From contig BCKZ01000017.1 in the NCBI GenBank assembly GCA_001600815.1, positions 473,970 to 537,969 on the forward strand: a stretch of 64,000 nt of DNA. Reading direction: 5' to 3'. A program made the position numbers and the translations under genes. The stretch comes from Alloascoidea hylecoeti. Lineage: Eukaryota. A model generated the notes under the pieces. It had not been told where the DNA came from. It worked only from the letters and a program-made list of their open reading frames with translations, and searched no databases. Below are positions 26,766 to 57,930 of the stretch, piece after piece (position 1 is the first letter of the stretch; the number at the start of each line of letters is the position of its first letter).

Positions 26766-26796
<31 letters not shown>

Positions 26797-33714: not shown

Positions 33715-34814
33715 TGGTTTGCCACCAACAACCCTTGATTATAGAAAAGTATCTAAATCATGGAAACAAATAGTTAGATGTATTTGTTGAGATTAATTAA
33801 CTTAATATATATTTAAAGTCTCAGAAGTTTATTTTAAATAACTCAGATAAGATAGAAAAACAACACTACAAGATATTAGAGTTCTTGATATATAAGTAGG
33901 TCTATTAACTTCCTAGAATGGCGGTAAGATGGGCAATCTTTTGAAATAATAATATATTTTATTTAAAAACAAATTATCTATCTATTAAATCAATATTTTA
34001 TAGTTCTATTTAGACTATCATGAAGTCTAAAGATTCAACTAAGTCAGCTGCTTCTGTGGCATCAAAGTGTAAACCACAACAGTATTGATATTAATGATAA
34101 ATATTTGGTTTCTGGTTCAACTGATGGTTCTTGTATAGTTTGGAAATTACCAGATTTTAAACCAATACATCGTTTGACAGCTCCAACACAAATAAATAAT
34201 AATTTATTTATAGATGATGTTGCTCTATACGATGACTATATTGTTTGTTCTGAGCTTATTTACATTACTATTTGGAAATCAAGTCTTGATAATTTTGGAC
34301 ATCAATTACGTATACAGTTTAACTTACAACACAATATAGATGGAAAAGGCCGCATCAACAGTATTCGCATTCATTATGGTATTGTATATAGTTCAGGTTT
34401 GAGGTTTATAAGAGCGTGGAATATTGAAACTGGTCAATTAATCCAAGAATTTAAATATCCCTCTATAAAATGCTTCACAGTTAATTATCAAAACTTATTT
34501 GTTGGTGAATATGGCAAACTAACAGTTCGCGATTTACAAACAAATAAAATAAAAAATATTTCAACTAAGAGCATCGGATTTATGTATAGTTGATAATAAA
34601 CTCATTACAATTTTTTTTAGTTGCGATTCTATTATAAGGATTTGGAATATAGGTGATCGAATGCTAGCATTATTTCAGCTAGAGATTTAAAATATAAAAG
34701 ATCTGTTTTTTGTTATCAATATATGCTGATTCGAAAAGATTGGCTGTTGTAACTTTGGAAGATATTATTGTTTATGAGTTTACTGAAAGGAAGAGGTATT
34801 TAAAACATCAATAA
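33715..34814 (+). pseudogene. F-box/WD40 family copy 1 (internal deletion, LTR insertion, frameshifts)
   Basis: LPPTTL..RKVSKSWK at about 33720; resumes IDINDKYLVSGSTDGSCIVWKLPDFKPIHRL at 34082; collinear with 41501-42757 to the end. Confidence 0.9.
33785..34081. mobile_element. Solo LTR, 297 bp, TGTTG...CAACA, 5-bp TSD GTATT
   Basis: GTATT at 33780-84 and 34082-86; removing it restores the ATGTATTGATATTAATGATAAA seen in sister copies; internal TATATAA. Confidence 0.88.
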
Positions 34815-35445
34815 GTATTAAGTCATTATTACGTATTTGGAGTCCCAACTAGAGTTTACCACGATTTACAGAAACGTTAATGTTTTCGGAGATTAGAAAT
34901 TTATTTTCGTTGATTGTAAAATAAATTTTTAATACGAAAAACTTACGGAAATTATTTACCCGGTCATCCTGATATATACGCCGTCGAGGGTAAACACAGG
35001 ACTGGATTCAAATGTTGAAAATTGTGTAATTTGGTGGATAATTTCTATAGTTATGCCTTTACTATAGATTAAATCAACTATAAAATCTCTGTTATATATT
35101 AAACTTGTGAATTTCAAGCTTGCCAATAGATTGCTCATAAAACTAATCCAAACTATAGTTCCCCTATAATTCTTCTAATATAGGCCTATATGCTCTTTGA
35201 AATCTATTCCTAATACCCATTGTTGTGATATCGTTGTCAGCATTATTAACATCAGTTTCAAGAATATTGTTCAAATAATGGCAATTTACTGCTGTTAGAT
35301 CCAAATTTAAAGCGGGAAAGTTTTTACGGTAAGAATAGTCACATGCTTACATCAGGTGATCTACGGAAATAACGTTTACTGAAACGTGTACGGACGACTC
35401 AATCGTGGTAAGCCAATTGATTATGTGCAATTAGCTGCGATCGCT

Positions 35446-35962
35446 GAGCAGAACCCTTTGGCGAGTAATAATCCGAGCAGGTTATATCATAGAATTATAA
35501 CAGTCTTAAATACTTCTAATTGTCAAAGTCTGGCTTCCGCGAACGCTTTCGAGCACAAAACTTTAGGCGATCTGGTGAAAATTAGTCAGAATTGGGAGCA
35601 AGGTTTTCATTACGAGGCTGCACAGTGCACACGATCATTTACGACGTAGGATGAGATTTACGTAAAGGGGGATATTGTGAGCACGGTAGTAGCCGTGCAT
35701 CGCTTAAAGTTTTGTGCTCGAAAGCGTTCGCGGAAGCCAGACTTTGGGGGGGCGAGCAACTCGCTTGACCGTTTCGTAGAGTAGTCAGTGCTCGCCTTCT
35801 TGTAACTCATACATTCTTCCTTTTTGAAAGTTTTAAATGTTCGTCTTCAGCTCGCGAGAATACTTAAATATTTGGCCCTTCTTAACAATTAGAAGTATTT
35901 AAGACTGTTATAATTCTATGATATAACCTGCTCGGATTATTACTCGCCAAAGGGTTCTGCTC
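35446..35962. repeat. Long interrupted foldback (78-bp perfect + 48-bp near-perfect inverted repeats)
   Basis: 35446-35523 = revcomp 35885-35962; 35524-35571 = revcomp 35699-35746 (1 mismatch). Confidence 0.92.
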
Positions 35963-36161
35963 CGCCTCGCATGCTATGCGCGGCGTACTGGCCGTTATAA
36001 AACTTATATTTTTTTTTCACCCTGATAACTCCGATCGTGAAAAAAAATTATTATCTTGACTGCTTTATTCTCTGATAACACGTACGTCCGTTACTATAAA
36101 AAATCGGACTTCCACACCACCCTTTCTTTTTTTTTTTCCGTTTCGAAAATCACAAGAAAAA

Positions 36162-37460
36162 ATGGCAACAGCTATCTCTACTGGTGTCGCTTCTGGTACA
36201 CAAACCTTCCCAAATTCCAACCTCGATGGTGAAAAAAGCACTGGTGCTTTGAGATCGGGTCAGTCTCCTGCTGCTGGTACTGTTCATCTTGATACTTATG
36301 GTAATGAATTCGTTGTTCCTGATTTCACAATTAAAGACATTCTTTCTGCAATTCCTGCAAAATGTTATAAACGTTCCGCAATAAGGTCTTTAGGCTACGT
36401 TGCAAGAGACCTTTTTTGTATTACTGGACTTGGCCTTTTAGCCATCTATAACATTCCAAAGGTCCCATTTGTTTCTGTTCGTATTGCCCTTTGGACTATT
36501 TATACTATCATTCAAGGTTTACAAGGTACAGGTATTTGGATTCTTGCCCATGAGTGTGGTCATAGTGCTTTTTCTGATTATCCAATATTGAACGATACAG
36601 TTGGTTGGATATTACATTCATCATTACTTGTTCCTTATTTTTCCTGGAAGTATAGTCATAGTAGACATCATAAGTCAACTGGTCATATGACAAGAGATAT
36701 GGCTTTTGTCCCTAAAACAAGAGAAGAGTTTTTAAAATCTCGTCATGCAAGTAAAATTGAAGAAATTACTGCTGAGACTCCAATAGTCACTTTATTTTGG
36801 TTATTGGCTCAACAATTAGTCGGTTGGATATTGTATTTATTTACCGACGTTACAAGTGGTAAAAAATATCCTAATGTTCCCAAATGGAAGATTAATCATT
36901 TTGTTCCATCGTCACCACTTTATTTTGAAGGAGAATATTGGAATATTGTTTTATCAGATATTGGTGTGTTAATTACAGGATTTATAGTTTATAAAGGTTT
37001 TGGAGCTTTTGGAACTGCTAATATGATGATTCATTATGTTTTACCATGGTTTGGAGTTCATCATTGGTTAATGTTTATCACCTATTTACAACATACTGAT
37101 CCAACAATGTCACACTATGAATCAGAAGTTTGGAATTTTGCTATTGGAGCAGCTGCAACAATCGATAGAGATTTTGGATTCATTGGTAAACACATGTTCC
37201 ATGATATCATTGAAACCCATGTTTTACATCATTACGTATCACGTATACCTTTTTATAATGGTCGTGAAGGAACAAAAGAAATTAAAAAAGTAATGGGTAA
37301 ACATTATAAATATAGTGGTGAAAATATGCTTGTTAGTTTATATAAAACTGCAAGAAGTTGTCAATTCGTTGAACCTGATGGAAGTGGTAATGGTGGTAAT
37401 CATGTTTTGATGTTTAGAAACACTAATAATATCGGTGTTAAACCATTGCCAAGTAAATAA
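36162..37460 (+). CDS. FAD2: Delta-12 (omega-6) fatty acid desaturase
   Basis: His boxes HECGH, HSRHH, HVLHH; PDFTIKDILSAIP; ITYLQHTDP; AAATIDR. Confidence 0.93.
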   Translation: MATAISTGVASGTQTFPNSNLDGEKSTGALRSGQSPAAGTVHLDTYGNEFVVPDFTIKDILSAIPAKCYKRSAIRSLGYVARDLFCITGLGLLAIYNIPKVPFVSVRIALWTIYTIIQGLQGTGIWILAHECGHSAFSDYPILNDTVGWILHSSLLVPYFSWKYSHSRHHKSTGHMTRDMAFVPKTREEFLKSRHASKIEEITAETPIVTLFWLLAQQLVGWILYLFTDVTSGKKYPNVPKWKINHFVPSSPLYFEGEYWNIVLSDIGVLITGFIVYKGFGAFGTANMMIHYVLPWFGVHHWLMFITYLQHTDPTMSHYESEVWNFAIGAAATIDRDFGFIGKHMFHDIIETHVLHHYVSRIPFYNGREGTKEIKKVMGKHYKYSGENMLVSLYKTARSCQFVEPDGSGNGGNHVLMFRNTNNIGVKPLPSK

Positions 37461-38578
37461 TCAGTCAATCATATTCTTTGGTTCATGGTTGGGAAGTACA
37501 TGTGCCGCTGTGGCTGAGAATCTGTTGGGAATCCAAATTTTAAAGAAGTTCAAATATTAAATATTAAATTTTCAATAATTACAATATGATAATCTTCTGG
37601 ACATGGTTGCAGGTGTAATTTTATATGTAACTCACTATGTGCATATGCATATAACTTATAGTACAGCTTTTCCACTCTGATTTTTCGCCCCATGCTTGAC
37701 CCTTTTTCGTCACTTATGTATGTTTAATTTCGACCTTTTGAAATTTAATTATTAGTTTCTCAGGTGATCATTTTTTCGTTCTATGGAGTTATTATACTTT
37801 GCCATATTCTTGACACATCTCGTCACAATATTCGACATTACGTAGAGCTATTAGTTCGCCATTTTGATTTTTAATATTTCGTCATTTCGAAAACGATTAG
37901 TTTGCCATTTTATGTCATGCAACACACAGAAGCGCTTGAATGAACGATTTTGAGAAGTTAGTTTTTAAATTGTAAAATGTTGCTATTTAAATTTAAGACT
38001 ACGTAATCGATGGTGAAAATTTTGACTTATTATAAATGGGTGGTTTATATTTCAGTAGAGTTTTCTTATGACTCACAAAATACTTATGTTATACGGTAGT
38101 ATTGGTATTTAAGTATCATGGCATGGGCTAAAAGTATAAAGGGTAGTCGTACCCCATTGTATAGAGTGGTTGGGGATCCTAGTACGTACCCCAAAACTAA
38201 CCGAGGGGTACTCGCTTATGATGTTAAGGTTGACAACACTAGATACTAGATTTGAAAAGTCATTTTATATAGTCATAGAATCGCTGGTATCTACGGAACA
38301 CTATGCACTATTTTTGGAATGGTTTGGGATTTTGTGGAGTATTTGTGGTTGGGCATAAAATCTTTCTTTTATTGTTGGAGGAGTCTAAAAATAAAATCCC
38401 ACGCTCCAGGAGTAAATTTCATACACCTTTTCGTGTTAGAATTATTTTGTTCACAATCCTATTTAAATGATGTCCCTTTCTCGAACCTCTGTTGCGATTG
38501 GAAAAAGTTATACTAGTGCGTATACTATTATTGATAACCACGAATACGTAAACAACAAACCATTTTACTGATTGTAAC

Positions 38579-39157
38579 ATGTCCTTCAACTAAACAAAAG
38601 TCTTGAGTCAATTAATATTGTTTCCGATCTACCTGTTGAAATATCTGGAATAATATTCTCAGATTTACCACCAACAACTTTACTCAGTTGTAGAAGAGTT
38701 TCTAAATCATGGAAAAATAGAATTGATAATGATGATATATGGAAATCAAAGTTTCAAGATCAAAAATCTTGGAAATACTATAATGATGATTCAGAACCTG
38801 ATTCATGGTATAAAACACGATATCATTTAGAATTAAATTGGAAAAATGATACATTTAAAAGTTATAATATTGGTGCTTCTGGCAGAACACACTGTGTTAG
38901 GTTTTTTAAAAATTGGATTTTAATTGGTTCAAAATATAGTCAATAAAAATCTTAGATAATGAAATTTATCAATGTTTAAAAGTATTAGGTGAGCCAAGTC
39001 CTGAGATTTCAAAAGAAGATTTATCAAGAAGGGAAATATTGGAATTAACAAAAAAATATTAATAACAAATTTCATTTGAGTTGTGTTACATGTATTGATA
39101 TTAATGATAAATATTTGGTTTCTGGTTCATATGATGGTTCTTGTATAATTTGGAAAT
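38579..39157 (+). pseudogene. F-box/WD40 family copy 2 (5' half, frameshifted, truncated at retroelement debris)
   Basis: 125/126 nt identical to the intact copy across the F-box (38668-38793 vs 41591-41716); ends at SGSYDGSCIIWK. Confidence 0.92.
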
Positions 39158-41170
39158 AGATCTCAACATATATACCGTAAGAGTTCGCAAACGGCACGAA
39201 TTACCATGCCCGCACGCCCAAAAGTATTACATTTCGATCACGAATTTCAAAACCAACAACCAATATAAATGATTAAAAATAGTAGTACTAAAATATTCTT
39301 AATCTAATAATTCAGATAATATATTTTTGATATTTTCTTGTGAATCTTGTTGCGGTTTGAGCATTCTTCTACGATTTAACACGTTGAACTCATTAGCTCC
39401 AATCTTCCGAAACACATTGTTCTTTGCTGTCTCCAGATAATTGTGTGTAATTAATACCTTTACCTCTCAGATGTCTAAGTTTCACTATGTATAATTTTCA
39501 AGGGATCTTCAAACACTGTGGTGGAAATATGAACTAATATATTTTCCTGCATTCCCTTGAAGTGATCTGTCCAAGTGTAGATATCTCAAAAACACCTTAA
39601 TCGATTAAGTTACCTCATGGAGCATACATCCTGTTTCATTTGTATTCCAATTGATCCAGTGAGCTCGCACGATTATATTACAACTCAGGATGTCGATTTG
39701 CAAAGGCATAGAACCATTTTTTATATTTACAATATCACTTAAAATTATCAAATATTATCAGGATCCTCCATTTAAGACTGAGAACTCGATTTGTTGATCA
39801 TGAATCTGTTAACGAATTTTGCATATTAAATTTGAAGGTGTAGAACCAGTTGTTGATTAAAGTTGAGCTTTTTCTGACACCACTTTGAAAAATACTCTTC
39901 CTTTTAGATACATGTAAGGCCTTATAGTATTTTTATACCATAGAATGATCTTTAGAATTTTGCGAAGCATGATCTTACGTTTTGTAATTCTAGTATGCGA
40001 CCTGAGTAAACATGCATATGCATATGACTTCTCAAATGCTGAAATAGGAAGAATGTTTAATATTAATCCATATTTCTTCCGGCATTTGATAATTGAAGGG
40101 TGGCATTAGATTTCCATTCTTCTTTTTTATTCCCATAAAATAAAATTATTGGCTGGGAGTTGTTCAAAATTGTTTTGAAATCTTTATAATTAAATATTTG
40201 CTCCAATAATACTGGCAGTGTCAAGATTTTAAATTGTCTATTGAGATAATTGGCATTTAATTGTGTTTTATCAGTTTGTAATGAAATGTCTGGTCTGTTA
40301 AATGTTACAATTTTGAATTTTACGTTGTTAGGTATATCCTGAAGATCTGTTTCCCCCATGGATACTAAGATTTTCCTAACTGTATAATGCTAAACCTAAA
40401 CAATCAGCAAATATCGTCAATAAAGAATATAAGCCAAGCTTTAAATTGATTTTTGATTCAGGCGCTTCGAATATAATTCTTAACCAGCGTGAGCATTTTA
40501 TTCAATTTGAGGATTTATCAAATAATATTATTAAGGACACAGTTACTATTGCTGATGGAAGTGAAAAAGAAATAGAAGGAAAAAGGAATGATTGAATTAA
40601 AGCTTGGAGATGATGTTTATAATTTACCAGCTTTATTTGTGCCTTCTATTCCATATAATTTTTTTAGTACAGCTACAATAAAAGATAAAGTCTTTTAAAT
40701 TGGACAAGGCATGATAACCATGCTTTCTCAAGAATCATTTGATGGTATCCAATAGCTACAGAGTTTAACAACGCTTATACTTTGAAGAATACTCTACGAA
40801 TGATCACACCAAGTAATCAACTATTGCAGTCCATTCTAATGAGCCACATGTACCCGCCAATAATATGGATACTACAGATTTAGCTCATGATTCTATCACC
40901 CACGATGATGCCATCACTCAAGTTAATTCTACAACTACTTCTTTTGGTCATAATACAAACATCCCAGTTCATGATATTGATAATCATCATAAATTGCAAC
41001 CATCTCTAGTTAACCACATTGACGACTTACATCCCACAACTTTAGATATTAATGATTCTACAACACATACAAATAGGATGGAAATTTCAGATTCGAATAC
41101 ATTATATAATTATAGATTTTTTAATTGTGATAGTGCAGATTATAATAGACAACCTCACTACTGTTGATGA
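39158..41170. mobile_element. Degraded Ty1/copia retrotransposon remnant
   Basis: + strand protease KLIFDSGASNII...VTIADGSEKEIEGK / LPALFVPSIPYNFFS (about 40440-40680); integrase-like LISSNLPKH near 39390; low-complexity linker-like ORF 40865-41167; boundaries approximate. Confidence 0.75.
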
Positions 41171-41196
41171 TATTTTTGTTGTAACAATGATTTGAA

Positions 41197-41333
41197 TTTC
41201 GCAGTACTGGAACTCAATAATAAGTTGTAGGGGTGACTGGCATATTCGTTATGTGGCTTCCACTTATTTCGCCATGCACATACTCACATGCGGTCACCCC
41301 AGCAACTAATTATTGGGATCCAATATGCCGAAA
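41197..41333. repeat. Imperfect 46-bp inverted repeat (MITE-like) upstream of the intact F-box gene
   Basis: 41197-41243 TTTCGCAGTACTGGAACTCAATAATAAGTTGTAGGGGTGACTGGCAT vs revcomp of 41288-41333. Confidence 0.7.
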
Positions 41334-41500
41334 ATACACTTATGCATACAAACGATAAGAAATATTCCATCCAATATTACTAATTCGGATCATTTTCTTC
41401 ATACACTTATTTAAATGACCCTCCTCGAACTGTTGTTCCTATAGGAGAAGCAGGTATAAATAACAACCACGAACACACCAATCTTTTTAACAGTCTCAGC

Positions 41501-42757
41501 ATGTCGTTACACAAAGATCTGGAGACTACTACTATCAATTTGGTTTCTTATCTCCCCAATGAAATATCTGAAATAATATTCTCGGATTTGCCACCAACAA
41601 CTTTACTCAGTTGTAGAAGAGTTTCTAAATCATGGAAAAATAGAATTGATAATGATGATATATGGAAATCAAAGTTTCAAGATCAAAAATCTTGGAAATA
41701 TTATAATGATGATTCAAAAATCGATTCATGGTACGAATTATACAAAGAACGTCATCTTTTAGAATTAAATTGGAAAAATGATAAATTTAAAAAGAATAAG
41801 TTGATTGGTCACGATAACGATATATTTTGTGTTAAATTTTATAAGGATTGGATTTTAACTGGTTCAAAAGATTGTGCCATAAGAATTTGGGATAATGAAA
41901 CTTATAAATATTTAAAGGTATTGGGTAAGCCAAATCCTGGTATTTTAAAAGAAAAATTTCCAAGAAGGGAGGCATTGGAATTAACAAAAGATATTGACAT
42001 CAAATTTCATTTGGATAGTGTTACATGTATCGATATTAACGATAGATATTTGGTTTCTGGATCATCTGATGGTTCTTGTATAGTTTGGAAGTTACCAGAT
42101 TTTAAACCAATACATCGTTTGACAATACCAACACAAGTAATTAATTATCTAATTATAAACGGCGTCGCTTTATACAATGATTATATTGTATGTTCTGAAG
42201 TTAGGTATATTAGTATTTGGAAATCAAGTCTTGATAATTTTGAACATCAACCACAGTTTAATTTACAACACAATTTAAAGGTACCAGGTTTTGTTAGGAG
42301 TATTTGCGTTCATAACGGTATTATATATAGTTTAGAATCTAGCGTTGTAAGAAGTAGTAATATTGAAACTGGTCAAATAATCCAAGAATTTCGATATCAA
42401 TATATAAGATCCTTTACAATAAATAATCACTACTTGTTCATCGGTGAGCACGACAAACTAACAGTTCGGAATTTACAAACAGATGAAATAACAAAGATCT
42501 CAGATCAATTAACACCTGATTTATGTATAATTAATGATAAACTCGTTACAATTGATATCGATTATACTATTAGGATTTGGAACATTGGTGATCAAAAATT
42601 TATAAAAGAATATAAAAATCTAAAATATAAAAGATCTCTATTTTCTTTTCTAAAAATTTGTGCTGATACGAAAAGAATAGTAGTAGTTACTTTGGAAGAT
42701 ATTGCTATTTATGATTTTACTGAAAAATTAAGAAAAAAATACTTAAAACATTTATAA
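41501..42757 (+). CDS. F-box/WD40 protein (beta-TrCP/Cdc4-like architecture), intact family copy 3
   Basis: F-box LPNEISEIIFSDLPPTTLLSCRRVSKSWK; WD repeats GHDNDIFCVKF..LTGSKDCAIRIWD and HLDSVTCIDINDRYLVSGSSDGSCIVWK; intronless, 418 aa. Confidence 0.92.
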   Translation: MSLHKDLETTTINLVSYLPNEISEIIFSDLPPTTLLSCRRVSKSWKNRIDNDDIWKSKFQDQKSWKYYNDDSKIDSWYELYKERHLLELNWKNDKFKKNKLIGHDNDIFCVKFYKDWILTGSKDCAIRIWDNETYKYLKVLGKPNPGILKEKFPRREALELTKDIDIKFHLDSVTCIDINDRYLVSGSSDGSCIVWKLPDFKPIHRLTIPTQVINYLIINGVALYNDYIVCSEVRYISIWKSSLDNFEHQPQFNLQHNLKVPGFVRSICVHNGIIYSLESSVVRSSNIETGQIIQEFRYQYIRSFTINNHYLFIGEHDKLTVRNLQTDEITKISDQLTPDLCIINDKLVTIDIDYTIRIWNIGDQKFIKEYKNLKYKRSLFSFLKICADTKRIVVVTLEDIAIYDFTEKLRKKYLKHL

Positions 42758-43589
42758 TAATTTAATCTTATATCCATATTTGAAAATAAATCTCAATCAA
42801 GAACTATCCGAAGTAGAATTCAGACTTCTAAGAGGACAGGAACTAAATTCATATAATCATCTGGAGATAACGTATTGCGGAATAGTAGAGATAGCCTTCT
42901 TATTATCGTCGCTCATTTCTTCTTTATTGAAATTATACTTAATAATTAATTATTACAACGTAATAATTTATTCTTGTATATTGTTCTAAACTAGCAATAT
43001 GTATGTGAAATCTCGGGGGAAGAGTGAACAAATGAAAATGATATCATAACTATAAATCCCTAACCCCTTTTTTTTTTCATATTTCTAATATAATATAGCA
43101 AAGGGAGATTTTTTGTTTTACAAAATTAAATATCGAAGCATATATTACGAGAATTGTAAGATTAACCCCAGTTTATCATACTTGCTGCTAGATTTGCAAT
43201 TTGTCGTTGCCTAAAATACAAGAAATTGGTATAAATAGGCATGACACTAAAGCTCCAACAACAACAACCATAAGAACAAAATTCATCCTTATTTTTATAT
43301 GTATACGGACATGAGTCCCAAAACATCTGCTCAGGGTAGGATATACATGGGCTTACAGTCAAGATTAAGCGTGAACGTTTTTTTCGAGTCACTCCAAATA
43401 GCAAAGGAAATAACCTACTACTGAATACTCCACGTTACCTTAAAATGTTTTTAAGATTGTGCTTACCGTTTCATAAGCTCTATGGATTCCATTAGTTTAT
43501 ATGAAATGGCATCTTAAGTTTATTTTGTGTTAGAGCTCTTAACGTCATAAAGGGTTCCTACGAGGGCTTTGGCGTGGTTCCCTCAAAAT

Positions 43590-44300
43590 AGTGAAATATA
43601 AGTTTAATATTAATTTAGATTTGGTTTTAAATCTTTCTACACAGAATCTTCCTATTCAATTAGAGAGGTTAGAAATATTACAGGAACCAAAGGTGAAAGT
43701 GTTGTTAACAATCTCAAGTATTGGTGTTCCTATGACAATCTTAACGTTTTGATGATTAAATCTTTTGAGAAAGTCACAGAGAGAATCAATATTCTTTTAC
43801 CACAAAAATGTGGTCTTTTGAAGAGCAACATCTGATATTATCGTCTCTACATAATCAGTTCATTCTCATAAAGAGGAAGAAGATCATCAATCTCATCGGT
43901 CGAAGCAATTGGTAACAAATATTTGTATCATGGAATGAAATCAATTTCAAAACTATCCAATAAAGTCGAGAGAAGTGTACTTCGCGGTTTCAGCCCGTAA
44001 AGTTTAGATGCTGTGTCATACATTGAGTACCGATCATCGGGTTGAAAACAAACAGATTGAAAATTTGAAACAGAATTTCCCTTTATTAATTTTTCAAAAA
44101 TATCACCAAACGTTATTGGTCCAGTTAAATTTTGTGTGCCTAAACACATTAATATTTGTATCATTTTTTCTAAATTTTGTCTTTTCTAGGGTTTCCGAAA
44201 AATTTGGTACTATTTTATGATAATCTGAGTCTTCACCATAAGGATTTGGTGGTGATATCGAGAAATAAGAATTTGAAGCATTTTTCGATTGTTCAATCAT
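43590..44300 (-). pseudogene. Orphan 'PPNPYG' family, copy B (frameshifted)
   Basis: MIEQSKNASNSYFSISPPNPYGEDSDY / CLGTQNLTGPITFGDIFEKLIKGNS...LLDSFEIDFIP*...STDEIDDLL; homologous to 20.2-21.1 kb; 3' boundary approximate. Confidence 0.75.
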
Positions 44301-45396
44301 AATATTAATATTTCTATTTGTTAAATGAATTCCAAACCTCGTAATGATCTTATCATTAATGTATCAATGTGACAAATAAAGCTATTTAAGCTTTAATGAA
44401 TGACATATGTCATAGTACACAAAATTGACAGGTAAGATTAAGAGCAGTTCTTGAAGTACTTCTGTCACAAGTAACGAGAAGTTAACTTGGCCAGTGGCAT
44501 AGAATAAACTTTGAATGATATAAATCTTTAGGACTTTACTGAAACATAAAGGAAGATATGTTTAAAACATTTATGATTTAATCTTATATTGAAATTTGAA
44601 ATTAAATATTAAGTTAAATAACACCCCTCTATAACTACATGTACACAGAAGTAACAGAAGTAAAGAATAGTATTATATTAATATTAATATTAATATTAAT
44701 CTGTAGCTAGTATATCGAAAGATACAATTTCCAAATACAAAGTATAACTATGTATTCAATTATAATTAACAATTGTTTATATTTAACTTATACTATAAAG
44801 TGGCAATGTCATCTTATATAAAATTAAATTATATGCTGATTTAAGAAAAGTCGGGGGAATAAAAAATATCAGTAAATCAGTAGTAGTAATACATAAATGC
44901 AAAGGAATGGACATCATCAGTAAGTGAAATTTTAAACAACAAAAAAATTTAGGTTCAAGAAATTAAATATCATACTCGCTGAGTGTATCCACAACTCTGC
45001 ATATGGCTCCTCGCCCTTACTGACCTTTTCTACTTCACTCACGCTGTAGATAGTTTCTTACGAAGATACAGTCATTTCACTTAATTTCGACTATGTGGTG
45101 GAGTAAATATCAACAAGCCACCTGATACACTTGATATTAGACCATACGATATACTGAAGTTCGGCACTCTGATTAATAGATATCGACCTTTTTATGTAGT
45201 AAGTATTCGCGCACGAAATATACATTCAATTGTAAACTAATTAATTGGGCATGTGATAGACCAATTGACTTGAAAGTTCAAGATTTAACATATAAAACAC
45301 AAACTCACAATAATGTCTCTATAGTCGAAAACTCAATAATCAGTAACTCAATAATCAGTAACTCAACTATATTCCTTTATCATTTATATCCATAAC

Positions 45397-48437: not shown

Positions 48438-48581
48438 TACATTAGCTAGTATAATATTATAGTACTCAAAAGTTACATAATACAAATACAAATATAAATA
48501 TTTATCGATTATTTGCTACCTTATGATGTTCTTTTTTCTGTTAACATTTTATTGTTAAATTTCAAATCTTCAGATATCTAA

Positions 48582-49226: not shown

Positions 49227-51223
49227 CGTAAAATCTAAAATAGGTATATCAACTTAGAGTAAGGATAAAAACTATGATGAATAATTAAAAAGGGATATAT
49301 CATTGTTATTTATATAAGAAAAACAATTTATGAGTGATATATAATGAATATATATAAATTATTTTTAGAATATTTTTGAAAACCTTTATAATCTAACTTT
49401 ATATTTTTGAACACAATTGCAAACTTTATGGTTGAGTTTAAATTCTATCTATGTGGCCATTCGACTCCACTCGAGTGTTAATATTTATGTTTCTGAGTTT
49501 AATAGAAAACCTTAATCCAATTACATTATCGAGTAGCAAGAGTATACTTGATTAATTTTTCTGTTTGCAGCAACAAAGTATTAATGAAGTATTAATAAAC
49601 GATGTCATGACACTGATTATAATCCATCAAATGAAATAGAAAGACAGGCATAAGATAGACTCTTTTCATTGTAACCATTTAAATTTATATATGTAACTAT
49701 AACTTAGTCTTCTACAGGAAAGAAGATAGATGCTTGAATAAAATAAAAAACTTTAACTCAATTATCACTTTGTTAGTAAATACCAAGTTTGAGAGCAAGT
49801 TATCGATATCGAGAGCGATACCTGGAAAGTGACTGGATTGTAGGTTTGTGTGTGTATTTTTTAAAAATTTAAAAATTATGACATATATTTAACAATCGTG
49901 TTGCATTATCTTGTTAATAATTTAGTAATAGATATATGTATACCCGGTATATTTACAACTAAATACAAAATATATGGTTATTTAATTAATTATTAATAAA
50001 TGGTTGCTTATAATTAAGCTTAATCGTTTACAATATATTTTATTAAAAAGAGAACGAATTTCCAGTTGAATTGTTTTAGTCTTAAATAACAATTTCAACT
50101 AGTTAATTTCATATATTTTATATAAAAATGGTACAGGTTATAATTATTTATAATTGAATTATAAAAGTGTATAATTAGTTATAATATTGCTTTAAACCCA
50201 CAACAGTGTACTTGTGATTAGGAATAAGCCATCAGGTACTTCTTTCTTAATTATCAATTAATATTTTAGAGCATATATATTCAACGAACATAATTCTTGT
50301 TCCATGACATTATATTAAATATCTTGGAGTACAATGAAAACCTCAGAAGGATTATATGGCATCATGTATTAATACTAATAAAATAATACTAATGATTAAA
50401 AAAAATTTATCATTTGGCAATTATTGAGATGACAACGCTGTTGAAAGACCAAATAAAGTCAACCTAGAAATTCAGGATATATTACTATTAATTTAATTAA
50501 AAGAAAAGCTATTCAACCTGTTCCCAATGATGTTGGAGTGTGTCTGGTATGATAATTACGTAGAAAACTAAAAGGAAAATCATGTAGAATTGGTAATAAA
50601 GGAATCTAATGTGTAGCATTCTAAACTAATGATGAGAAATGAATATAAATGGCATGTATTAATGCTTTTCATACATTCTTAATGACATTCAATATAAAGA
50701 TTCATTTTTCACTTTTATTCTTTTCAAATAACGATCATTAATTTCACATTTGTGTGTGTTATATAAGGTGAGATACTTTTTCAGTATGGACCTTTTGCAA
50801 TGGAAAATTAAACAAAGGAAGTGCTAAGTTAAGTAAGTAACTGATACCTATGATATTGTATGTTGAGGAAATGTAATGGAGTGATTTTTTCATCTTTTCT
50901 GAAATGTATGGTTCATTAATGATGTGAAAGAATAAATATAATTGTATATATTAGCTGCTTGAATTAGAGTAAAAATGATAATTTAAACTTAAATAAGAAT
51001 CTAGTAAATGAATATATTTTGTGATTGCCATAGCTATAATAAGGTGATAATGAATTATATAAATGAAACCAACCAAATTAAGCAACAATATAATAAAATA
51101 TATATATATATATATAAAAACATTTAACAACTAAATAAATTAAAAAACCCATACAAAAACAAAAACAAAAACAAAAACAATCGTAAAGTAATACTTTTCT
51201 AAAATTTTCTATATTTTTTTTAA

Positions 51224-52555
51224 TCAATTATCATTAAGACTTCTCCAACCATCCCTAACCAATTTCCATTTAATTTCATCATTACTAGTATTCCCATTAT
51301 TATCATTTTTATTTTTGCTGCTATTTTTATTAAATTTTTTAATTTGATCATTTTCATCATCTTCAATAATTATATATTTTTCCCATTTTTGTTGATTTTT
51401 CCAAACTATTGTAACTGAATCTTCAGAAGTCCAACCCAATGTACCAAAATCATTATCAATTATTGAAGAATTTCCTCCTGAATTTCCTGTTGCTGATGGT
51501 GAATCAACTCTAATTGAACAAAAAGACCAAGTTGATGAGAAATAACGAGGTAATAAAGGTACATTATTTAATAAATGATGTTTATTATGAGATGATCCCA
51601 TACCCATTTCATTATCATTTGAATCATTACTATCAATTGTTAAATCAATGTTGTAAATATGTAAGGTTTTTTTATCACTTAGGACTGCAAGCCTTGTACC
51701 TAAGGGGCTGAAACTCATTGAATAAATATCAGCACGGTCAAGACCTCTTCTGAATTCATAAAGTAAAGAAGTTGATGATGTTGAATGAATACGGATTATT
51801 GTACCGGTTTCACTTGCACTTGCGATCATTGTACCTGATCGGTTTAGGGCAAGGCAACGGATTGTTGATTTATGGGCGCGGATTATTGAAATTAGGTTAC
51901 GTTCTTGACCTTCTGGGCTTATGTCAACAAGTTGGATTTGACCTTCAGATATTGATGGAAATGCTAAAATATGAGAAGATTTAATTTTGGTAGAAGTTGG
52001 TGGATTTGAAGAAGTTGTTAAATTTGAAGTTAATGATGATGGAGAAATTGAAGAATTTAATCCATAACTTAAAGCGACAATTCCATATTTATTTTGAAAA
52101 GTTTCATAACTTATAATTAAAGATGGTGGGATTGAAAAGGTATAAATAAATATTTTATTTTTTAAAATAATAATTATTTTTGTACGAGATAATAAAACAT
52201 TTAAAATTGGAGAAAAAAATTCTAAATTTAACGAATCTTGCTTTTTTAAATCATCCCATATGATTAGTTTATTTTCAGGATACTGTGGGTTGCGTCCGCC
52301 TCCAACTAATGCTAAGTAGTTTGTACGATATAACATTGTGATTATTCCAATACCTCCTTTTGTTGTTGGTGAGGTCGACGATGAGGTTGGGGATCTGAAT
52401 TCTCTTTTCACTTTTAAATCAGGCGGGTCGGAGTTGTAGACCCGGAAGCCGTTTTCGGTTCCAAGGGCAAAGCACTGCTGGTCTTGGTTGAAGGAAACAC
52501 AAAGGATTCTGTTTTCATTGTTGATGGAGTCCGGAATGGGGCTGCGTGTGATCAT
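51224..52555 (-). CDS. HSV2: PROPPIN WD40 phosphoinositide-binding protein (Atg18 family)
   Basis: True start MITRSPI at 52555; SFNQDQQCF..GFRVYN.DP, MLYRTNYLALVGGG, ASASETGTIIRI, FRRG, SDKKTLHI. Confidence 0.88.
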   Translation of the reverse strand: MITRSPIPDSINNENRILCVSFNQDQQCFALGTENGFRVYNSDPPDLKVKREFRSPTSSSTSPTTKGGIGIITMLYRTNYLALVGGGRNPQYPENKLIIWDDLKKQDSLNLEFFSPILNVLLSRTKIIIILKNKIFIYTFSIPPSLIISYETFQNKYGIVALSYGLNSSISPSSLTSNLTTSSNPPTSTKIKSSHILAFPSISEGQIQLVDISPEGQERNLISIIRAHKSTIRCLALNRSGTMIASASETGTIIRIHSTSSTSLLYEFRRGLDRADIYSMSFSPLGTRLAVLSDKKTLHIYNIDLTIDSNDSNDNEMGMGSSHNKHHLLNNVPLLPRYFSSTWSFCSIRVDSPSATGNSGGNSSIIDNDFGTLGWTSEDSVTIVWKNQQKWEKYIIIEDDENDQIKKFNKNSSKNKNDNNGNTSNDEIKWKLVRDGWRSLNDN

Positions 52556-52672
52556 TGTGGACAAGCACGGTAATGGAGCAGCGACACATAGGAGGCAGGG
52601 AGGCACTGTTACCCGGATCCGCACTAACACTGGTGAGTTTGTAGGAAACACACTCTCCAAGTAATCAGACAG

Positions 52673-54751
52673 ATGGCTGGGAACAACGGAATCCAGTGGC
52701 TGGCGAGTCTCCAGCAGCACACGGCACGGCCCCGGCTGGCCCAGCCCCACACCAACTTTGGGGTGCTGGGTGCCCCTCCTCCACCCCAGCCCGGGCCCCA
52801 GCACACTTCCTTCAACGCACAGGCCACCATGGCACACGTGCCCTCCGTGCCCTCTCTGGTCCCCCAACAACACGTGGGGCACCCCCTCGTCCACCCCCAA
52901 CCACACGTGGGGCACGTGCCGCAGGATGACTTCTTCCTGTACCCTCAACAGCTCACAAAACAAGAAGTTTCCGTCTACACAAGGTGGTTCAATGATATTC
53001 AAATAACCAGGGCCAATAGTGTTTCATTCCAAGAAACTCTTAATTTTATGCTAAATTTCAATTTAACTTCTGAAATGATTTCAAAAATTAAAAAAATTTG
53101 GCCTCCTAGTATTTCGATTCTATCAATTGGTCAATTTTATGCATTATTAAGAATAATTGCTCATGTTATTGATAATTATAACGAAAATAATGACATTTCC
53201 AAGGATCTAATATTTCAAATTCCTAAAATTCCAAATCCAAAATCGATTATTGCAAAAAATAAGTATGAAGAACCTATTGCTGAACCCATTGTTGATGATA
53301 CTATTGGTAATCCATTTAGAAATTTATTTTCTAAAAAGCAATCACATCATGAACACGAAGAAGAAATACAAGAAAATGGTAATGGTAATGGTAATGGTAA
53401 TGGGAATACTTCATTAGATATAGATATGTTTCAAAAAATCCTATTAACTGGTGATTCACCAAATGGTAAACATAAATTATCAAACGATAAGCATAACAAA
53501 AGAAAAAGAAAAAGAGTTACATTTGATTCATCAATCCCAAATAATGATACAAATGAGAATAATAATGTTAATGTTAGTGTTAATGAATCTGGAATTATTG
53601 ATTTTTCATTACCAATGAATCAATTATTAGGTAAAGTTCCTCCACAAAGAGGTATATTAACCCCACCAACTGTTAGTTTTAACTCAAATTCAAATGTACC
53701 TAAAATATCTTTTGGTAATAATGAAGATGATGAAGAATTAAAAGATATGGAAGATTCAATAAATCATTTTAAAAATGTTAATATTGATAGTGTTTTATAT
53801 CATGGAGTTTCATCAAATATTCCATCAAATTTTTTTATTAATGATAATCCATCTCCATCATTATCTCCATCACCTTCTCCTTCTCCTGATTTGAATTTAT
53901 CTAATCAAGTAACTGGTTCATCGTTAACTAATCAAACTACTGGTTCATCATTTAATAATTTTAATTTAAATTCTGGTTTAAGTATTTCAAATCCAAGAGT
54001 TTCACCATCTCCATCATTAAGTTCAATAAATAACGGATTAGGAATTCAACCACCACCACCTAGGAAATCAATATCTCAATCCGAATCATTATTATCATTA
54101 CAAACTTTAGGTTCTAACTCTAACTCTAACTCTACTTTTAATTCTAATTCTAACTCTAATTCTAATTCTAATTCATTTCCAAAACCTCCCCCACCTCCAT
54201 CACGGCATCGATGTCAAAATCAAACTTCAACGTCAACATCAACTTCAACATTTCAAAATAATGGAAGTGGGAATGGAGTTGGTTTAAGGGTACCTCCTCC
54301 TCCACCACCATCAAGATCAAGAAATCGTGGACGTACGAATTCATTACAACAAGTTCCAAATCGAGTTCCTAATCCATTTCCAAATTTCAATCAAAATCCT
54401 AATCCTACTCAAAATCAAAGTCAAAATCAGAGTCAAAATCAGAGTCAAAATCAGAGTCGAAATCAAAATCAAAACTTAAATGTAAGTAATATATGGAACC
54501 AATCAGTTATCCAATCACAATCGATGAATCCATATAATTATTCATATTCTAAATCAGATACAAATTTAAATTTAAATCAACAACAACAACAACAACAACA
54601 ACAATTTACAAATGGAATTGAAAATGGAAATGGATCATCATCAATAATGAATAATAATGAAATTACTGCATCTTCTGATATACTTGATGATTTAAAAGCA
54701 TTACAAGCAGAAGTTGATAGAATAAATCAAATAACTAATGGAAATTATTAA
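52673..54751 (+). CDS. SCD5: Scd5-like endocytosis/PP1-targeting protein
   Basis: QLTKQEVSVYTRWFNDI...LSIGQFYALLRIIAH; RVxF motif KRVTF; NPF motifs; Pro-rich tracts; C-terminal DILDDLKALQAEVDRI. Confidence 0.75.
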   Translation: MAGNNGIQWLASLQQHTARPRLAQPHTNFGVLGAPPPPQPGPQHTSFNAQATMAHVPSVPSLVPQQHVGHPLVHPQPHVGHVPQDDFFLYPQQLTKQEVSVYTRWFNDIQITRANSVSFQETLNFMLNFNLTSEMISKIKKIWPPSISILSIGQFYALLRIIAHVIDNYNENNDISKDLIFQIPKIPNPKSIIAKNKYEEPIAEPIVDDTIGNPFRNLFSKKQSHHEHEEEIQENGNGNGNGNGNTSLDIDMFQKILLTGDSPNGKHKLSNDKHNKRKRKRVTFDSSIPNNDTNENNNVNVSVNESGIIDFSLPMNQLLGKVPPQRGILTPPTVSFNSNSNVPKISFGNNEDDEELKDMEDSINHFKNVNIDSVLYHGVSSNIPSNFFINDNPSPSLSPSPSPSPDLNLSNQVTGSSLTNQTTGSSFNNFNLNSGLSISNPRVSPSPSLSSINNGLGIQPPPPRKSISQSESLLSLQTLGSNSNSNSTFNSNSNSNSNSNSFPKPPPPPSRHRCQNQTSTSTSTSTFQNNGSGNGVGLRVPPPPPPSRSRNRGRTNSLQQVPNRVPNPFPNFNQNPNPTQNQSQNQSQNQSQNQSRNQNQNLNVSNIWNQSVIQSQSMNPYNYSYSKSDTNLNLNQQQQQQQQQFTNGIENGNGSSSIMNNNEITASSDILDDLKALQAEVDRINQITNGNY

Positions 54752-55980
54752 ACTTTGCCATTATATTAAGATTGGTAACGTTATTTTTAGATGCTTAGAT
54801 GGTTTAGATTCTTAAGTGGGGTTGATGGTTACGTTTGATGTATATGGTTTGACGGTTGTATTTATAATTCATATAGTTATGTTACAGATTATATATTCAT
54901 GTTAATATTTTATATTTATATTTATTTTATAGTTTATTAAATAAAATTAGTTTTCATTAGATTGCTCTCTTTCTAGATTATCAAAACATTTTAGGTAATT
55001 GAAACTGAAATTGAAATTAAAAATGGGACATCTTATATCAAAATAATCAAAAAGGTAAAAAAAAAAAAAAATATGTAAGATTATAATCGTAGAATATGAA
55101 TGATAATTCAGAAAGATAAAATAAAATAAAATAAAATAAGACAAGGTTTTCCTTTTCAAAATTTCTCAGATATATACAGCCCTCTTAAATAAAAGATTTG
55201 CACAATACAAAATACCTGGGCGTGAACATTGAGTAATCCATATTAAACACCCTATAAGACTCGTTGATCTTCAGTAGTATCAGATTCAACTTATTTGTCA
55301 ATTACTTTCAATGTTGTAATTCATGATAATCTTTTGCCATACTTTTAAATACTAATACTCCTGGTTTTGTTTAACTAAGGCTTACTTTTCTTTCATTCCG
55401 GTAACATGAGATTAAAAATCAATGTTAAGGAGAAAGATCTGTGCTTGTTAAATTTTAAGTTCAGGTTGGTTAATAGTATTAAGCAAATTTTCTGATTTTA
55501 TAATTACATTCCTTTGTTTATCACCAATTACTTAATTAGCACTTCAGGTATTACCCGGCTCTATCCTAAATGAAGATTACACAAGTATAGAATTATCAAT
55601 TAAAGAGGAAGAAGAGAGTTGAAAAATGAAAATCTCACAAGATTATTGTATAAACATGATTATATGAAGATGATTTTTGTTTTATAGTTGTTGGAAATAT
55701 GTAAATAAGTATCCATATTTATATTATAGGAATCTATTTAACTATCTACAGCATACGTCAATTTTTAGGCTTAAAGGTTATAATGTTATTACACTATTAT
55801 TAATACTGTAAAATACTTGTTAATTTTATAAATTATATAGTTTACTAGTTATAGTAGTATATTATAAAACTTCAATTGAAATCTCTTTAATCTCAGCGTT
55901 TAACTAATATTCATGTTCATTTAAATTAAAAAAGATTGATATATATATATATATATATATATATATTTCCCTTGATTGCT

Positions 55981-57124
55981 TAGTAAAATCAAAAATAAAG
56001 ATTTCATTCTTAGTAAAAACAGCTATTCTTTTCGAATCAGCACAAATTGAAAACGGATCTAATTTTTTTGAATCTTTTTTTTTTTTGATATCCTATAAAT
56101 TTTTGATCATCTATATTATAAATCCAAATAATGAAATTATAACTAATAGCAATCATTTTATTATCAACTATACATAGATCTGATGTTGGTTGATCTAAAA
56201 TATCTATTATTTTAATTTTTTGTAAATCTCGAATTGTTATTTTGTTATATGTACTAGTAAATAAATATTGTTCATTTACTGTGATGCGTGTTGTAGAATT
56301 CGAAAACGAATCATAGTTAAATTCTTGGATTATTTGACCAGTTTCAATGTTTTTCGTCCTCACAATATTATCTTCTGAACTATATATTTTATTCACATTC
56401 TGAATGGTGTTGTAAATCAAATTGTAGTTGATCTAAATTATCAATACTTGATTTCCAAAAATAAATACAAGAAATCTCAAAACATACAATATAATCCTTG
56501 TATGAAGCAACATGATTTACAAATAAATGAGAATAGTTTTGTGATGCTACCATTAAACGATGTGTTGCTTGAAAATCTGGTAATTCCAAATTATACATAT
56601 GAACCAGAAACCAAATATTTATCATTAATATCAATACAAATAACACCACCCAAATGAAATTTAATATCAATATTTTTTGTTAATTCTAATATTTCTCTTC
56701 TTGATAAATTTTCTTTTAAAATCTTAGGATTCGATTTACCTAATATTTTTAAACATTTATATGTTTCATTATTCCAAACTTTAATTGTACCATCTTTTGA
56801 ACCAGTCAACACCCAATTTTTAAAAATTTGTATATCCATCATTTTTCCAATTTGATTTTAAAATGGAACGTTTTTTATATAATTCATACCATGAATTAGT
56901 TTCTAAATCATCATTATAATATTTCCAAGATTTTTGTTGAAATTTTGGTTTCTATAAATCATCACTATCAATTCTTTGTTTCCATAATTTCGAAACTCTT
57001 CTACAACTAATTAAAGTTATTGGCAAATCTGAAAATATCCTTTCAGATATTCATCAGGGAGATAAGAAACAAAACTATTATTAGTCTCAATATTTCTCTG
57101 TAAGGAGATGCTGGTAAAGAACAT
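55981..57124 (-). pseudogene. F-box/WD40 family copy 4 (multiple frameshifts)
   Basis: Fragments WVLTGSKDGTIKVWNNETYKCLKILGKSNPKILKENLSRREILELTKNIDIKFHL, KNIETGQIIQEF, DQPTSDLCIVDNK collinear with the intact copy. Confidence 0.9.
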
Positions 57125-57930
57125 GCTGAAAATGTTAGAATGGTTATTGCGTTCGCGGTTTGTACCTACGTACCAGATCAACAGTTTGAGGAAAGGTAAT
57201 CATTTAAGTGGGCATTGTGGAGATCAGCCTTATAATTTGGAAAGTCTCGTCTGCATCCTCCCTGCGCTAGTTTTTCTAATTATAGATCTTGATAGTAGCT
57301 TTGATAGCAATAATGAGTAGGAATTTGTTTCTATTAATAAAAGCTATTGTTGCAGATAAGATTGAAATAAACGTGATACTCAGTTAAGTTCAATATTTAT
57401 CTACTAAAACATCACAGCGTGTGAAGAAAATAATCTCAAAAGGAGTTGTTTCTGGACATCTAGTAAGCTTGCAATATGGTGGCAATATCCCTTAAATAAC
57501 TTCATAATATGAGGGCTCATTTTAGATGTTTGTCGCAATGTTACATATTCGATTATTTAAGTAAGTCTTATTGCTATTAATCACACTTAAAATGTAAATA
57601 TATAAAAATAATCATTAGTAACTTTAGAAAGACCAATATATCTGCCATTCGTAATCATAACAAGTTTGAAGAATTCACATTGCTACTCGAATGATACTTC
57701 GAAAAGATAGTATCCAAAAATGGTTTTGTAATTGTTTTGGCTTACTCCTAAATAAAAATAATAGTTGATGATCTTTTCAAAGTAGGAATATATAACATCA
57801 AAAGCCATATTGCAATTACAGAGCACATAATACCAACTCATGCATTACTTGTGATATATTTAGTTTTCAATATTTTTGTAATTACTATTTTTAGGAAGAT
57901 GATACCTTTGTGTGCCATTTATCAATTTCC

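Follow-up and report, generated by a model that had tools for sequence, protein, structure and literature searches.

A lineage-specific F-box/WD40 family in the yeast Alloascoidea hylecoeti: a local cluster with copy turnover, varied top faces and probable Met30-like ancestry

Budding yeasts are reference organisms for SCF ligases and are usually credited with few F-box/WD40 receptors, which change little. Among receptors of this type, beta-TrCP (FBXW1/FBXW11) and Fbw7/Cdc4 grip phosphodegrons with basic residues, and the propellers of Cdc4 and Fbw7 have eight blades. In nematodes and plants, expanded F-box families mostly carry other substrate domains, and in fungal NOD-like receptors hypervariable WD40 propellers form a diversifying recognition surface. 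As far as the available excerpts of the sources extend, the diversity of fungal NLRs is the subject of one study (PMC13449251), and Met30/SconB/Scon2, the SCF receptor of fungal sulphur metabolism, is described as carrying seven WD repeats behind its F-box (PMC3385136). Similarly limited excerpts report that the mouse Fbxw12 cluster on chromosome 9 is made up of 12 adjacent F-box/WD40 genes, with many divergent sites that include substrate-interacting regions (PMC3984280), and that F-box families in wild isolates of C. elegans are highly diverse and under positive selection (PMC8120010).

We analysed a stretch of 64,000 nucleotides (the window) from the unannotated genome of Alloascoidea hylecoeti, a deep-branching and little-studied budding yeast. 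A preliminary description had proposed four F-box/WD40 paralogues here, and tblastn with the intact 418-aa protein located all four (copies A to D), with C alone intact; the two peptides quoted for them, QHNIDGKGRINSIRIHYG and QHNLKVPGFVRSICVHNG, are present in A and C. The tally for the window is one intact copy, three dead copies and two small scraps. The features are as follows:

33267..33321, + strand: F-box/linker-like scrap (self-blastn, 82% over 55 nt against copy B 38764-38817)
33719..33769, + strand: F-box scrap LPPTTL-DYRKVSKSWK, upstream of copy A (tblastn)
34082..34839, + strand: copy A, pseudogene, codons ~177-418 only (blades 2-7 and C-tail), 76% nt identity to C
38579..39157, + strand: copy B, pseudogene, codons 1-197 only (F-box, linker, blade 1 and part of blade 2), 82% nt identity to C
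38668..38777, + strand: gene-conversion tract in B, 110 nt identical to C 41591-41700, the longest exact match
40380..40592, + strand: possible Ty1/copia-type gag-pol scrap (weak; sub-threshold Pfam Pol_BBD)
41501..42757, + strand: copy C, intact 418-aa F-box/WD40 gene (ORF, Pfam)
44508..44607, + strand: fifth remnant, last ~22 codons and 3' flank (blastn against 42689-42791, 78%, E 2e-15)
55950..57124, - strand: copy D, full-length pseudogene, 70.6% nt identity to C over 1295 nt

In the tblastn search, copy A was matched at 34084-34808 on the plus strand (aa 177-417 in three frames, E 2e-69), copy B at 38584-39156 on the plus strand (aa 1-197, E 5e-60) and copy D at 57109-55967 on the minus strand (at least four frames, E 3e-70), while the fifth remnant at 44508-44607 matched aa 397-418 at 64%. 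The scrap at 33719-33769 shows 80% identity over 20 aa to the family protein P0009 (tblastn, E 0.002), and the 312 nt that separate it from position 34082 are unalignable, at about 50% identity. Searching the window with 20 family proteins returned the same four loci, the F-box scrap and one unrelated WD40 gene, which is of the Utp12 type and lies at 9.7-12 kb.

The truncations, indels and stops differ among A, B and D, in agreement with the proposal that the three copies died by different lesions. Copy A aligns only from CDS nt 529 on and carries three frameshifting indels in that part (-2 at 34570, +2 at 34678, -4 at 34718). Copy B keeps an ATG at 38579, and an early frameshift leads to a TAA at codon 5; further indels are found at 38941 (-1) and 39050 (+1), and homology stops abruptly at 39157, after aa 197. 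Seven frameshifting indels and one stop disrupt copy D, in which the original ATG has become ATC and an in-frame ATG is present upstream at 57124. Copies B and C are 100% identical in CDS nt 98-164 and 65-86% identical elsewhere, and their 110-nt stretch without a single difference shows that gene conversion has taken place between the two.

Copy C consists of an F-box (residues 16-60), a helical linker (77-92), a seven-bladed propeller (97-405) and a conserved C-tail. Its assignment as an F-box/WD40 protein holds, with Pfam F-box-like (E 9e-12; 44.9 bits against a cut-off of 24.3) and WD40 both above curated cut-offs and F-box matched at residues 16-60 (E 3e-10); F-box-like, F-box and WD40 were likewise matched in 20 of 20 family members. 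The AF2 model (pLDDT 76.8, pTM 0.75) exceeds pLDDT 80 in most 10-residue blocks of the propeller, whereas the F-box, modelled without a partner, stays below 50. As the C-terminal protein-interaction domain, the propeller matches F-box/WD40 receptors in Foldseek searches, the best being FBXW11 and beta-TrCP with Skp1 (E 9e-25, TM 0.65), followed by Fbw7 and Cdc4. Profile searches of solved structures gave FBXW7 (1e-50), beta-TrCP (1e-33 to 1e-35) and Cdc4 (1e-27). The family thus shares architecture and fold with beta-TrCP and Fbw7/Cdc4, but structural identity to the solved receptors is only 15-18% (Foldseek). Since the F-box begins at residue 16, there is no room in C for an N-terminal dimerisation region. 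The F-box motif and its conservation (pair identity 0.67) suggest that the family binds Skp1.

The family comprises 20 database proteins, of which 19 are 48-59% identical to the intact protein of the window; past the family, identity falls to 26%, and the next relatives reach at most 33%. When 1.84 billion representatives were searched exhaustively with a profile, nothing but clusters and fragments of the family scored above 270 bits, and the best non-family protein reached 248 bits. Of 13 short fragments with high scores, 12 are separate broken copies outside the window; the 13th is copy A, whose longest ORF is P0285 in the protein library. The singletons come from one source and one fragment is an ORF of the window itself, which suggests that the 19 relatives and 12 fragments share its genome; P0012 and P0016 are both listed on contigs 20894 long. 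The claim of an expanded, lineage-specific family is borne out by these 20 proteins and 12 outside broken ORFs, followed by the gap to the next relatives, and that of birth-and-death turnover by the mixture of intact, dead and scrap copies in the window. Many lineage-specific paralogues, dead copies and partial clustering are features of birth-and-death F-box families, and a lineage-specific SCF receptor family that is duplicating, diversifying and decaying is well supported. As far as the excerpts cited above show, it is large and lineage-specific like the nematode and plant families, and a lineage-specific tandem expansion like that of mouse Fbxw12. Compared with the mouse genes, which are mammalian, intron-bearing and 64-98% identical in the excerpt, the yeast family is intronless, older (to judge by the identities to C), partly dispersed and rich in dead copies. 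It also differs from the fungal NLRs, which have no F-box or ubiquitin-ligase link and vary through repeat shuffling within one gene, not whole-gene duplication.

Tree inference placed copies A, B, C and D in one clade (UFboot 98), with dS among them of 0.34-0.46. The family and a Saccharomycotina group that includes Met30p stand together, apart from the remaining F-box/WD40 proteins (UFboot 92); the name Met30p is given by the source for a single protein, and the other 19 proteins looked up carry no family-identifying name. One family member, P0007, is sister to all the others, and the derived clade that excludes it (support 100) contains 19 database proteins and the three dead copies of the window; its stem to the outsiders measures about 1.06-1.46 substitutions per site. 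Copy C lies inside this clade and is therefore no 1:1 orthologue of a conserved F-box gene, in agreement with the preliminary description, and one-to-one orthology with Met30/SconB is ruled out by the same exclusion of P0007 and outsiders. Although Met30p lies in the nearest outside clade, derived members differ from Met30 in number (dozens of copies against a single gene) and in build, being about 420 aa long, without a region ahead of the F-box and with 30 residues inserted after blade 1, before blade 2. The protein labelled FBXW1/11 pairs with a Saitoella protein (support 99), apart from the family, so that the beta-TrCP type is rejected for copy C despite the best structural match. The protein that bears the name FBXW7 also falls outside the clade, with its partner from the yeast side, and this position together with the seven blades counted from the strands of the model rules out the Cdc4/Fbw7 type.

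Variation is unevenly distributed over the propeller. With top and bottom faces set by the strand order of the model and textbook WD40 topology, not by coordinates, entropy within the family is 2.26 bits in top loops (69 columns), 0.83 in bottom loops (49) and 1.16 in strands (159; Mann-Whitney p 5e-15), whereas the order is reversed in 23 outgroup proteins (top loops 1.04, bottom loops 2.13 bits). Pair identities of 0.61-0.75 mark the F-box, the linker, the core of the propeller, its bottom loops and the C-tail as conserved; strands A and D have pair identities of 0.46 and 0.56. Of 37 top-face residues conserved in the outgroup, eight outgroup members checked keep 33-36 and P0007 keeps 30, a likeness to Met30 not shared by the other 19 family members (4-14), copy C among them (10). 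The derived top face holds fewer basic residues than that of the outgroup (11% vs 20%) and more acidic (20% vs 13%) and aromatic ones (11% vs 6%); in its depletion of basic residues it differs from beta-TrCP and Fbw7/Cdc4. Uniform divergence had been named in advance as an observation that would count against the proposal; variation gathers on the substrate-binding face. The earlier impression that the first WD repeats are conserved and downstream segments differ is roughly right, in that blades 5-7 are somewhat more variable, but the actual contrast is between top-face loops and the rest, in every blade.

The window most probably holds a local cluster of a lineage-specific SCF receptor family with Met30-like ancestry, turnover and varied top faces. 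The ancestor would have been a Met30-like fungal F-box/WD40 gene whose binding surface P0007 still bears; the derived lineage may have lost this surface together with the N-terminal extension, and then multiplied through local and dispersed duplication. Copies would swap sequence by gene conversion and often die, while live ones would hold the F-box, linker, propeller core, bottom face and basic C-terminal tail under constraint, with the top-face loops, the presumed substrate-holding site as in WD40 F-box proteins, varying from copy to copy. Beside the anatomy, phylogeny, turnover and inverted conservation pattern observed, we infer that the live paralogues all dock on Skp1-Cul1 and that each brings a substrate of its own to ubiquitination.

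The reading that copies A, B and D are intact genes broken by sequencing or assembly errors has in its favour that two indels of copy B sit in A-runs (A5 and A7) and that the window holds two N; yet the deletions of 44, 32, 10, 5 and 4 nt in copy D, the absence of half the gene from both A and B with abrupt homology edges, the intact long ORFs of neighbouring genes and the fact that the seeming breaks in an Atx10-like gene are introns with GTAAGT sites make this explanation practically untenable. That copy C is a plain orthologue of a Met30-, Cdc4- or beta-TrCP-type gene with few dead local duplicates could be argued from the solved-structure matches and the neighbouring Met30p, but its place inside the derived clade behind a long stem, the few ancestral top-face residues it keeps and its seven blades, against eight in Cdc4 and Fbw7, render this very improbable, and as far as the data reach it is already refuted.

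Nei-Gojobori dN/dS in top-face codons, calculated from window copies of which three are pseudogenes, is 0.76 (C-A), 0.81 (C-D) and 1.17 (A-D), with 0.43-0.79 elsewhere; being near neutral, these values mean that the top face may be under relaxed constraint. They would fit a neutral expansion, in which the ancestral substrate was lost, the top face drifts, and duplication and gene conversion keep a family that is mostly heading to pseudogenes, as would the many dead copies (three of four in the window plus two scraps, and 12 fragments elsewhere). No RNA run contains the gene, a result that is neutral as to expression. We regard a neutral expansion as unlikely, since 18 of the 20 database proteins (counting the one from the window) align over 97% or more of the 418-aa query, the regions outside the top face are conserved, and the dS among the window copies represents time enough for an ORF free of constraint to be disrupted, the fate of A, B and D; moreover, the top-face shift is directional, with basic residues down and acidic and aromatic ones up, and not merely noise. 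Of the description of the family as diversifying, the variability of the top-face loops stands, but top-face dN/dS clearly above 1 was not found among the window copies, three being pseudogenes, whereas the excerpt cited reports positive selection for the nematode families. The same result weighs against a repertoire that degrades foreign or selfish proteins (retroelement, viral, toxin or meiotic-drive) and diversifies in an arms race, a reading we hold to be distinctly doubtful even though the variability of the binding face, the conservation of the part that docks on the ligase and the birth and death of copies resemble other expanded F-box families. It is equally improbable that dozens of minimal F-box/WD40 proteins from one Met30-type receptor form an adaptive, immune-like SCF repertoire, in which variable top faces would recognise changing proteins of this kind (products of retroelements, dsRNA viruses, killer toxins or drive elements) and pass them on to ubiquitination, with conversion and copy turnover supplying variation. 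One possible copia-type scrap does lie between B and C, and its read-through shows FDSGAS, which may resemble an aspartic-protease motif, but the Pol_BBD match (E 3.5e-5, 24.5 bits; 20.8 when read through) is below the cut-off of 27 both ways. Most genes around the cluster are ordinary, conserved and matched by Pfam, which also speaks against an arms race, and six-frame read-through of 42.76-45.3 kb revealed no transposon remains. The setting 'amid transposon debris' of the preliminary description is thus weakly supported, by this single sub-threshold scrap.

A local cluster of a diversifying receptor family, the reading we prefer, would mean that a yeast has a counterpart to the large F-box families with rapid turnover known from plants, nematodes and mice. 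Searches of full-text articles gave no description of such an F-box/WD40 expansion in yeasts, and it appears not to have been described so far. The family contains an unusually clean internal control, as P0007 keeps the ancestral face and its 19 relatives have replaced it while retaining the ligase-docking parts, and thereby offers a compact system for studying how receptors gain substrates and whether they act in defence or conflict. The host is a small organism that may be culturable and whose genes are mostly without introns. Because introns occur elsewhere in the genome, as in the Atx10-like gene, the term 'intronless' used at the outset applies to the F-box/WD40 family and not to the genome as a whole.

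The F-box/WD40 copies in the window number one intact gene (copy C) and three broken paralogues (copies A, B and D), accompanied by smaller scraps. When the protein of copy C was searched against the window, the other three loci of the preliminary description were all recovered where it had placed them (E 1e-60 to 1e-70), and a search with all 20 database proteins of the family, that of copy C included, added only an F-box scrap. Positions and condition are as follows.

33267-33321, further scrap, family-related
33719-33769, plus strand, F-box scrap upstream of copy A, with 312 unalignable nt between the two
34082-34839, plus strand, copy A, alignable from CDS nt 529 on, with three frameshifting indels there
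38579-39157, plus strand, copy B, with the ATG kept, an immediate frame shift and TAA at codon 5
41501-42757, plus strand, copy C, intact ORF of 418 aa, with an F-box at residues 16-60 (E 9e-12) and WD40 repeats, Pfam cut-offs exceeded
44508-44607, fifth remnant, the last 22 codons plus 3' flank
57124-55950, minus strand, copy D, full length, with seven frameshifting indels, one stop and the start codon changed to ATC

Copy B carries two further single-base indels and ends abruptly past residue 197, and the indels of copy D include deletions of 44, 32 and 10 nt. The proposal that three copies had died by different lesions is thus borne out, A, B and D each being broken differently through indels, stops, loss of the start or missing parts. 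Sequencing errors were considered as the source of these lesions and rejected, as the lesions are too large and the long ORFs of adjoining genes are unbroken. That A and B might be a single gene cut in two, as a 66-nt overlap (95% identity) could suggest, was likewise rejected: the overlap is the best-conserved segment in all copies (A and D share a 38-nt exact match there, B and D one of 43 nt, and A and C are 94% identical), and an F-box scrap of its own lies upstream of copy A. Homology breaks off abruptly at the 5' edge of A (34082) and the 3' edge of B (39157), both of which lie inside this same segment, which may be a preferred site of ectopic recombination. Directly at the 3' end of copy D lies a perfect palindrome of 28-32 nt, of TA-repeat type (55938-55969). 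Just past this copy, single N bases occur at 58027 and 58105, within a 146-aa minus-strand ORF (57931-58371) that has no family match.

A word-indexed search returned 19 relatives of C at 48-59% identity, after which identity drops to 26%. All 19 are unnamed singletons from one source, probably the window's own genome; query coverage is at least 97% in 18 of the 20 family proteins, the other two being truncated, and every member matches both F-box models as well as WD40. A profile run exhaustively against 1.84 billion representatives returned first two family clusters, at 655 and 541 bits, together with 13 short proteins scoring highly for their size. Next came unrelated multi-WD40 giants and full-length proteins from outside the family (outsiders); the best full-length outsider reached 248 bits. 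One of the 13 short proteins is the ORF of copy A; none of the remaining 12 exceeds 76% identity to an intact member, and they therefore represent further broken copies. Two members, P0012 and P0016, each lie on a contig of length 20894, which suggests a further family cluster elsewhere. Among metagenome contigs, 261 pattern matches included no relative. At least half of the sampled words were present in four DNA run rows (three studies), one of them labelled as a wood-decay metagenome; no RNA run was listed with these words, a result that is uninformative on transcription either way.

With the pseudogenes entered as read-through translations carrying X at every break, all four window copies fall into a single clade within the family (UFboot 98), and the window cluster therefore arose through local duplication; given the dS of 0.34-0.46 among these copies, the duplications are not recent. 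Within the F-box region, a stretch of 110 nt is exactly the same in copies B and C, which elsewhere are about 80% identical, and this tract marks ectopic gene conversion of a dead with a live copy. At the base of the family, the 517-aa protein P0007 is sister to all other members on a short branch. The nearest proteins beyond the family are encoded by single F-box/WD40 genes in many fungi and reach no more than 33% identity to P0007. The comparison with Cdc4, Met30 and beta-TrCP types proposed at the outset placed the family nearest to a group of budding-yeast proteins, one of them named Met30p at its source, the family and this group splitting from the rest of a 27-sequence tree with support 92 and proteins labelled FBXW7 and FBXW1/11 lying further out. 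Among 20 outsiders looked up, a specific family name was attached to one (Met30p), and one more was described generically as an F-box/WD repeat protein. "Met30-like" is the best available label for the ancestry of the family, and is used here as a label of resemblance, with no claim to proven orthology.

An AlphaFold2 model of C, built on the 20-sequence alignment, shows a seven-bladed propeller at residues 97-405 (pTM 0.75; most 10-residue blocks with pLDDT above 80), with 30 helical residues inserted between blades 1 and 2; the linker forms a long helix (77-92), and the F-box is modelled at low confidence. Foldseek ranked Skp1-bound FBXW11 and beta-TrCP first among solved structures (E 9e-25, TM 0.65), followed by Fbw7 and Cdc4; the profile-to-sequence ranking was FBXW7, beta-TrCP, Cdc4.

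Hotspot positions on the top face have been described (PMC3419727). We sorted the propeller columns into strands, top loops (D-A and B-C, on the substrate-binding side) and bottom loops (A-B and C-D), assigning faces from the strand order of the model and textbook WD40 topology. Divergence among the 20 paralogues is far from uniform: it is concentrated in the top loops, with an entropy of 2.26 bits as opposed to 0.83 in bottom loops and 1.16 in strands (top versus bottom loops, p = 5e-15), and the F-box, linker and C-tail are conserved (pair identity 0.67-0.75). The 23 outside relatives, which are more divergent overall, show the opposite pattern, with conserved top loops (1.04 bits), variable bottom loops (2.13) and strands at 1.44. 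Many of the variable columns are gap-free, so that alignment error does not explain the variation of the top face. The outgroup conserves 37 top-face columns, of which P0007 keeps 30 and the other 19 members, referred to here as derived, keep 4-14. On the derived top face, basic residues are half as frequent as in outsiders, and acidic and aromatic residues are more frequent.

Selection was gauged by Nei-Gojobori dN/dS on the window copies only, three of the four being pseudogenes. Values for C against each dead copy were 0.46-0.58, and 0.90 for A-D. At top-face codons they rose to 0.76-0.81 (C-A and C-D) and 1.17 (A-D), with 0.43-0.79 for the same three pairs in the propeller outside the top face and 0.29-0.33 there for pairs involving B; the 3.24 of C-B rests on 12 shared top-face codons, too few to weigh. 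The binding face evolves faster than the remainder, at an approximately neutral rate. Of the diversification suggested earlier, the faster change of the top face holds; a dN/dS of 0.76-1.17 there in the pairs C-A, C-D and A-D is no demonstration of positive selection. The main rival explanation is that the top face no longer binds anything and simply drifts. Against it speak the long persistence of intact ORFs whose scaffolds are conserved, and the composition of the top face, which has shifted in one direction.

The window copies are best read as members of a family of small SCF substrate receptors that is specific to its lineage. Its anatomy, tree, turnover and inverted conservation pattern are direct observations; Skp1 binding, ligase function and separate substrates for each paralogue are what we infer. 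The ancestor would have been Met30-like, with P0007 representing the ancestral form, and the derived lineage would have multiplied after losing the ancestral binding surface, along with an N-terminal extension. Its members would retain the fold and, presumably, the parts for Skp1-Cul1 docking and vary at substrate-binding sites, with copies that swap sequence and frequently die. A part in defence or genetic conflict, raised in the preliminary description, would be a speculative addition to this reading. In a full-text literature search, supplements aside, no account of expanded F-box/WD40 genes turned up for budding yeasts. The closest described analogue is in mouse, where 12 genes in tandem make up the Fbxw12 cluster (PMC3984280), and F-box expansions under positive selection are reported in nematodes (PMC8120010).

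The preliminary description had set the family amid transposon debris, for which the evidence is weak, amounting to one copia-type Pol_BBD match under the Pfam cut-off (40380-40592, plus strand). This single match reappeared in a Pfam read-through of 39.9-41.2 kb in the three plus-strand frames, and a six-frame read-through of 42.76-45.3 kb gave nothing further. Elsewhere the gaps were covered by a Pfam scan of ORFs no shorter than 55 aa; of the 89 such ORFs in gene-poor stretches, the one just named was the sole Pol_BBD match, the others being blank or ordinary genes. A direct repeat of 430 bp (20719-21137 and 43932-44357, 77% identity by blastn) was rejected as a solo LTR on account of a coding-like minus-strand reading, itself lacking a Pfam match, and has the look of another duplicated gene fragment, adjoining the fifth F-box remnant. 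Its copy at 20 kb sits in a run of minus-strand ORFs in differing frames (20330-21242). Upstream of the desaturase gene lies an interrupted inverted repeat (35432-35976), with arms pairing 35432-35526 with 35976-35882 (95%) and 35524-35571 with 35746-35699 (98%) and an interruption of the right arm by about 136 nt. A foldback or MITE-like element is one possible reading of this repeat, a regulatory hairpin another. Imperfect 200-nt palindromes (73-79%) occur at 12183-12380 and 21586-21786.

The window is low in GC (about 25-36% in 2-kb bins) and otherwise holds ordinary fungal genes, namely threonine synthase, a Utp12-type WD40 protein, an MFS transporter, a GH20 hexosaminidase, a fatty-acid desaturase, a branched-chain aminotransferase and a PROPPIN. 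Threonine synthase is 71% identical to its best named match, with the following matches scattered across many budding-yeast lineages, which makes the host a budding yeast without any closely related named entry among the database sequences. Reassignment of CTG was rejected: compared with the solved yeast enzyme, two of the four Thr4 CTG codons fall on Leu, one on Phe and one on Ser, and the standard code was therefore used for translation. GTAAGT donors indicate introns in some of the genes. A gene with ataxin-10 homology (12901-14213, plus strand) is spread over four ORFs in alternating frames, with GTAAGT donors at no fewer than two junctions; at one of them the donor precedes a TATTAAC branch-like site and TAG. 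The ORF breaks are introns rather than frameshifts. Two long ORFs have no Pfam match: one of 730 aa (25171-27363, minus strand), whose internal repeats cross-match several genes, and one of 692 aa (52673-54751, plus strand), rich in N/Q/S/P repeats (NGNGNG, QNQSQNQS and a poly-Q run).
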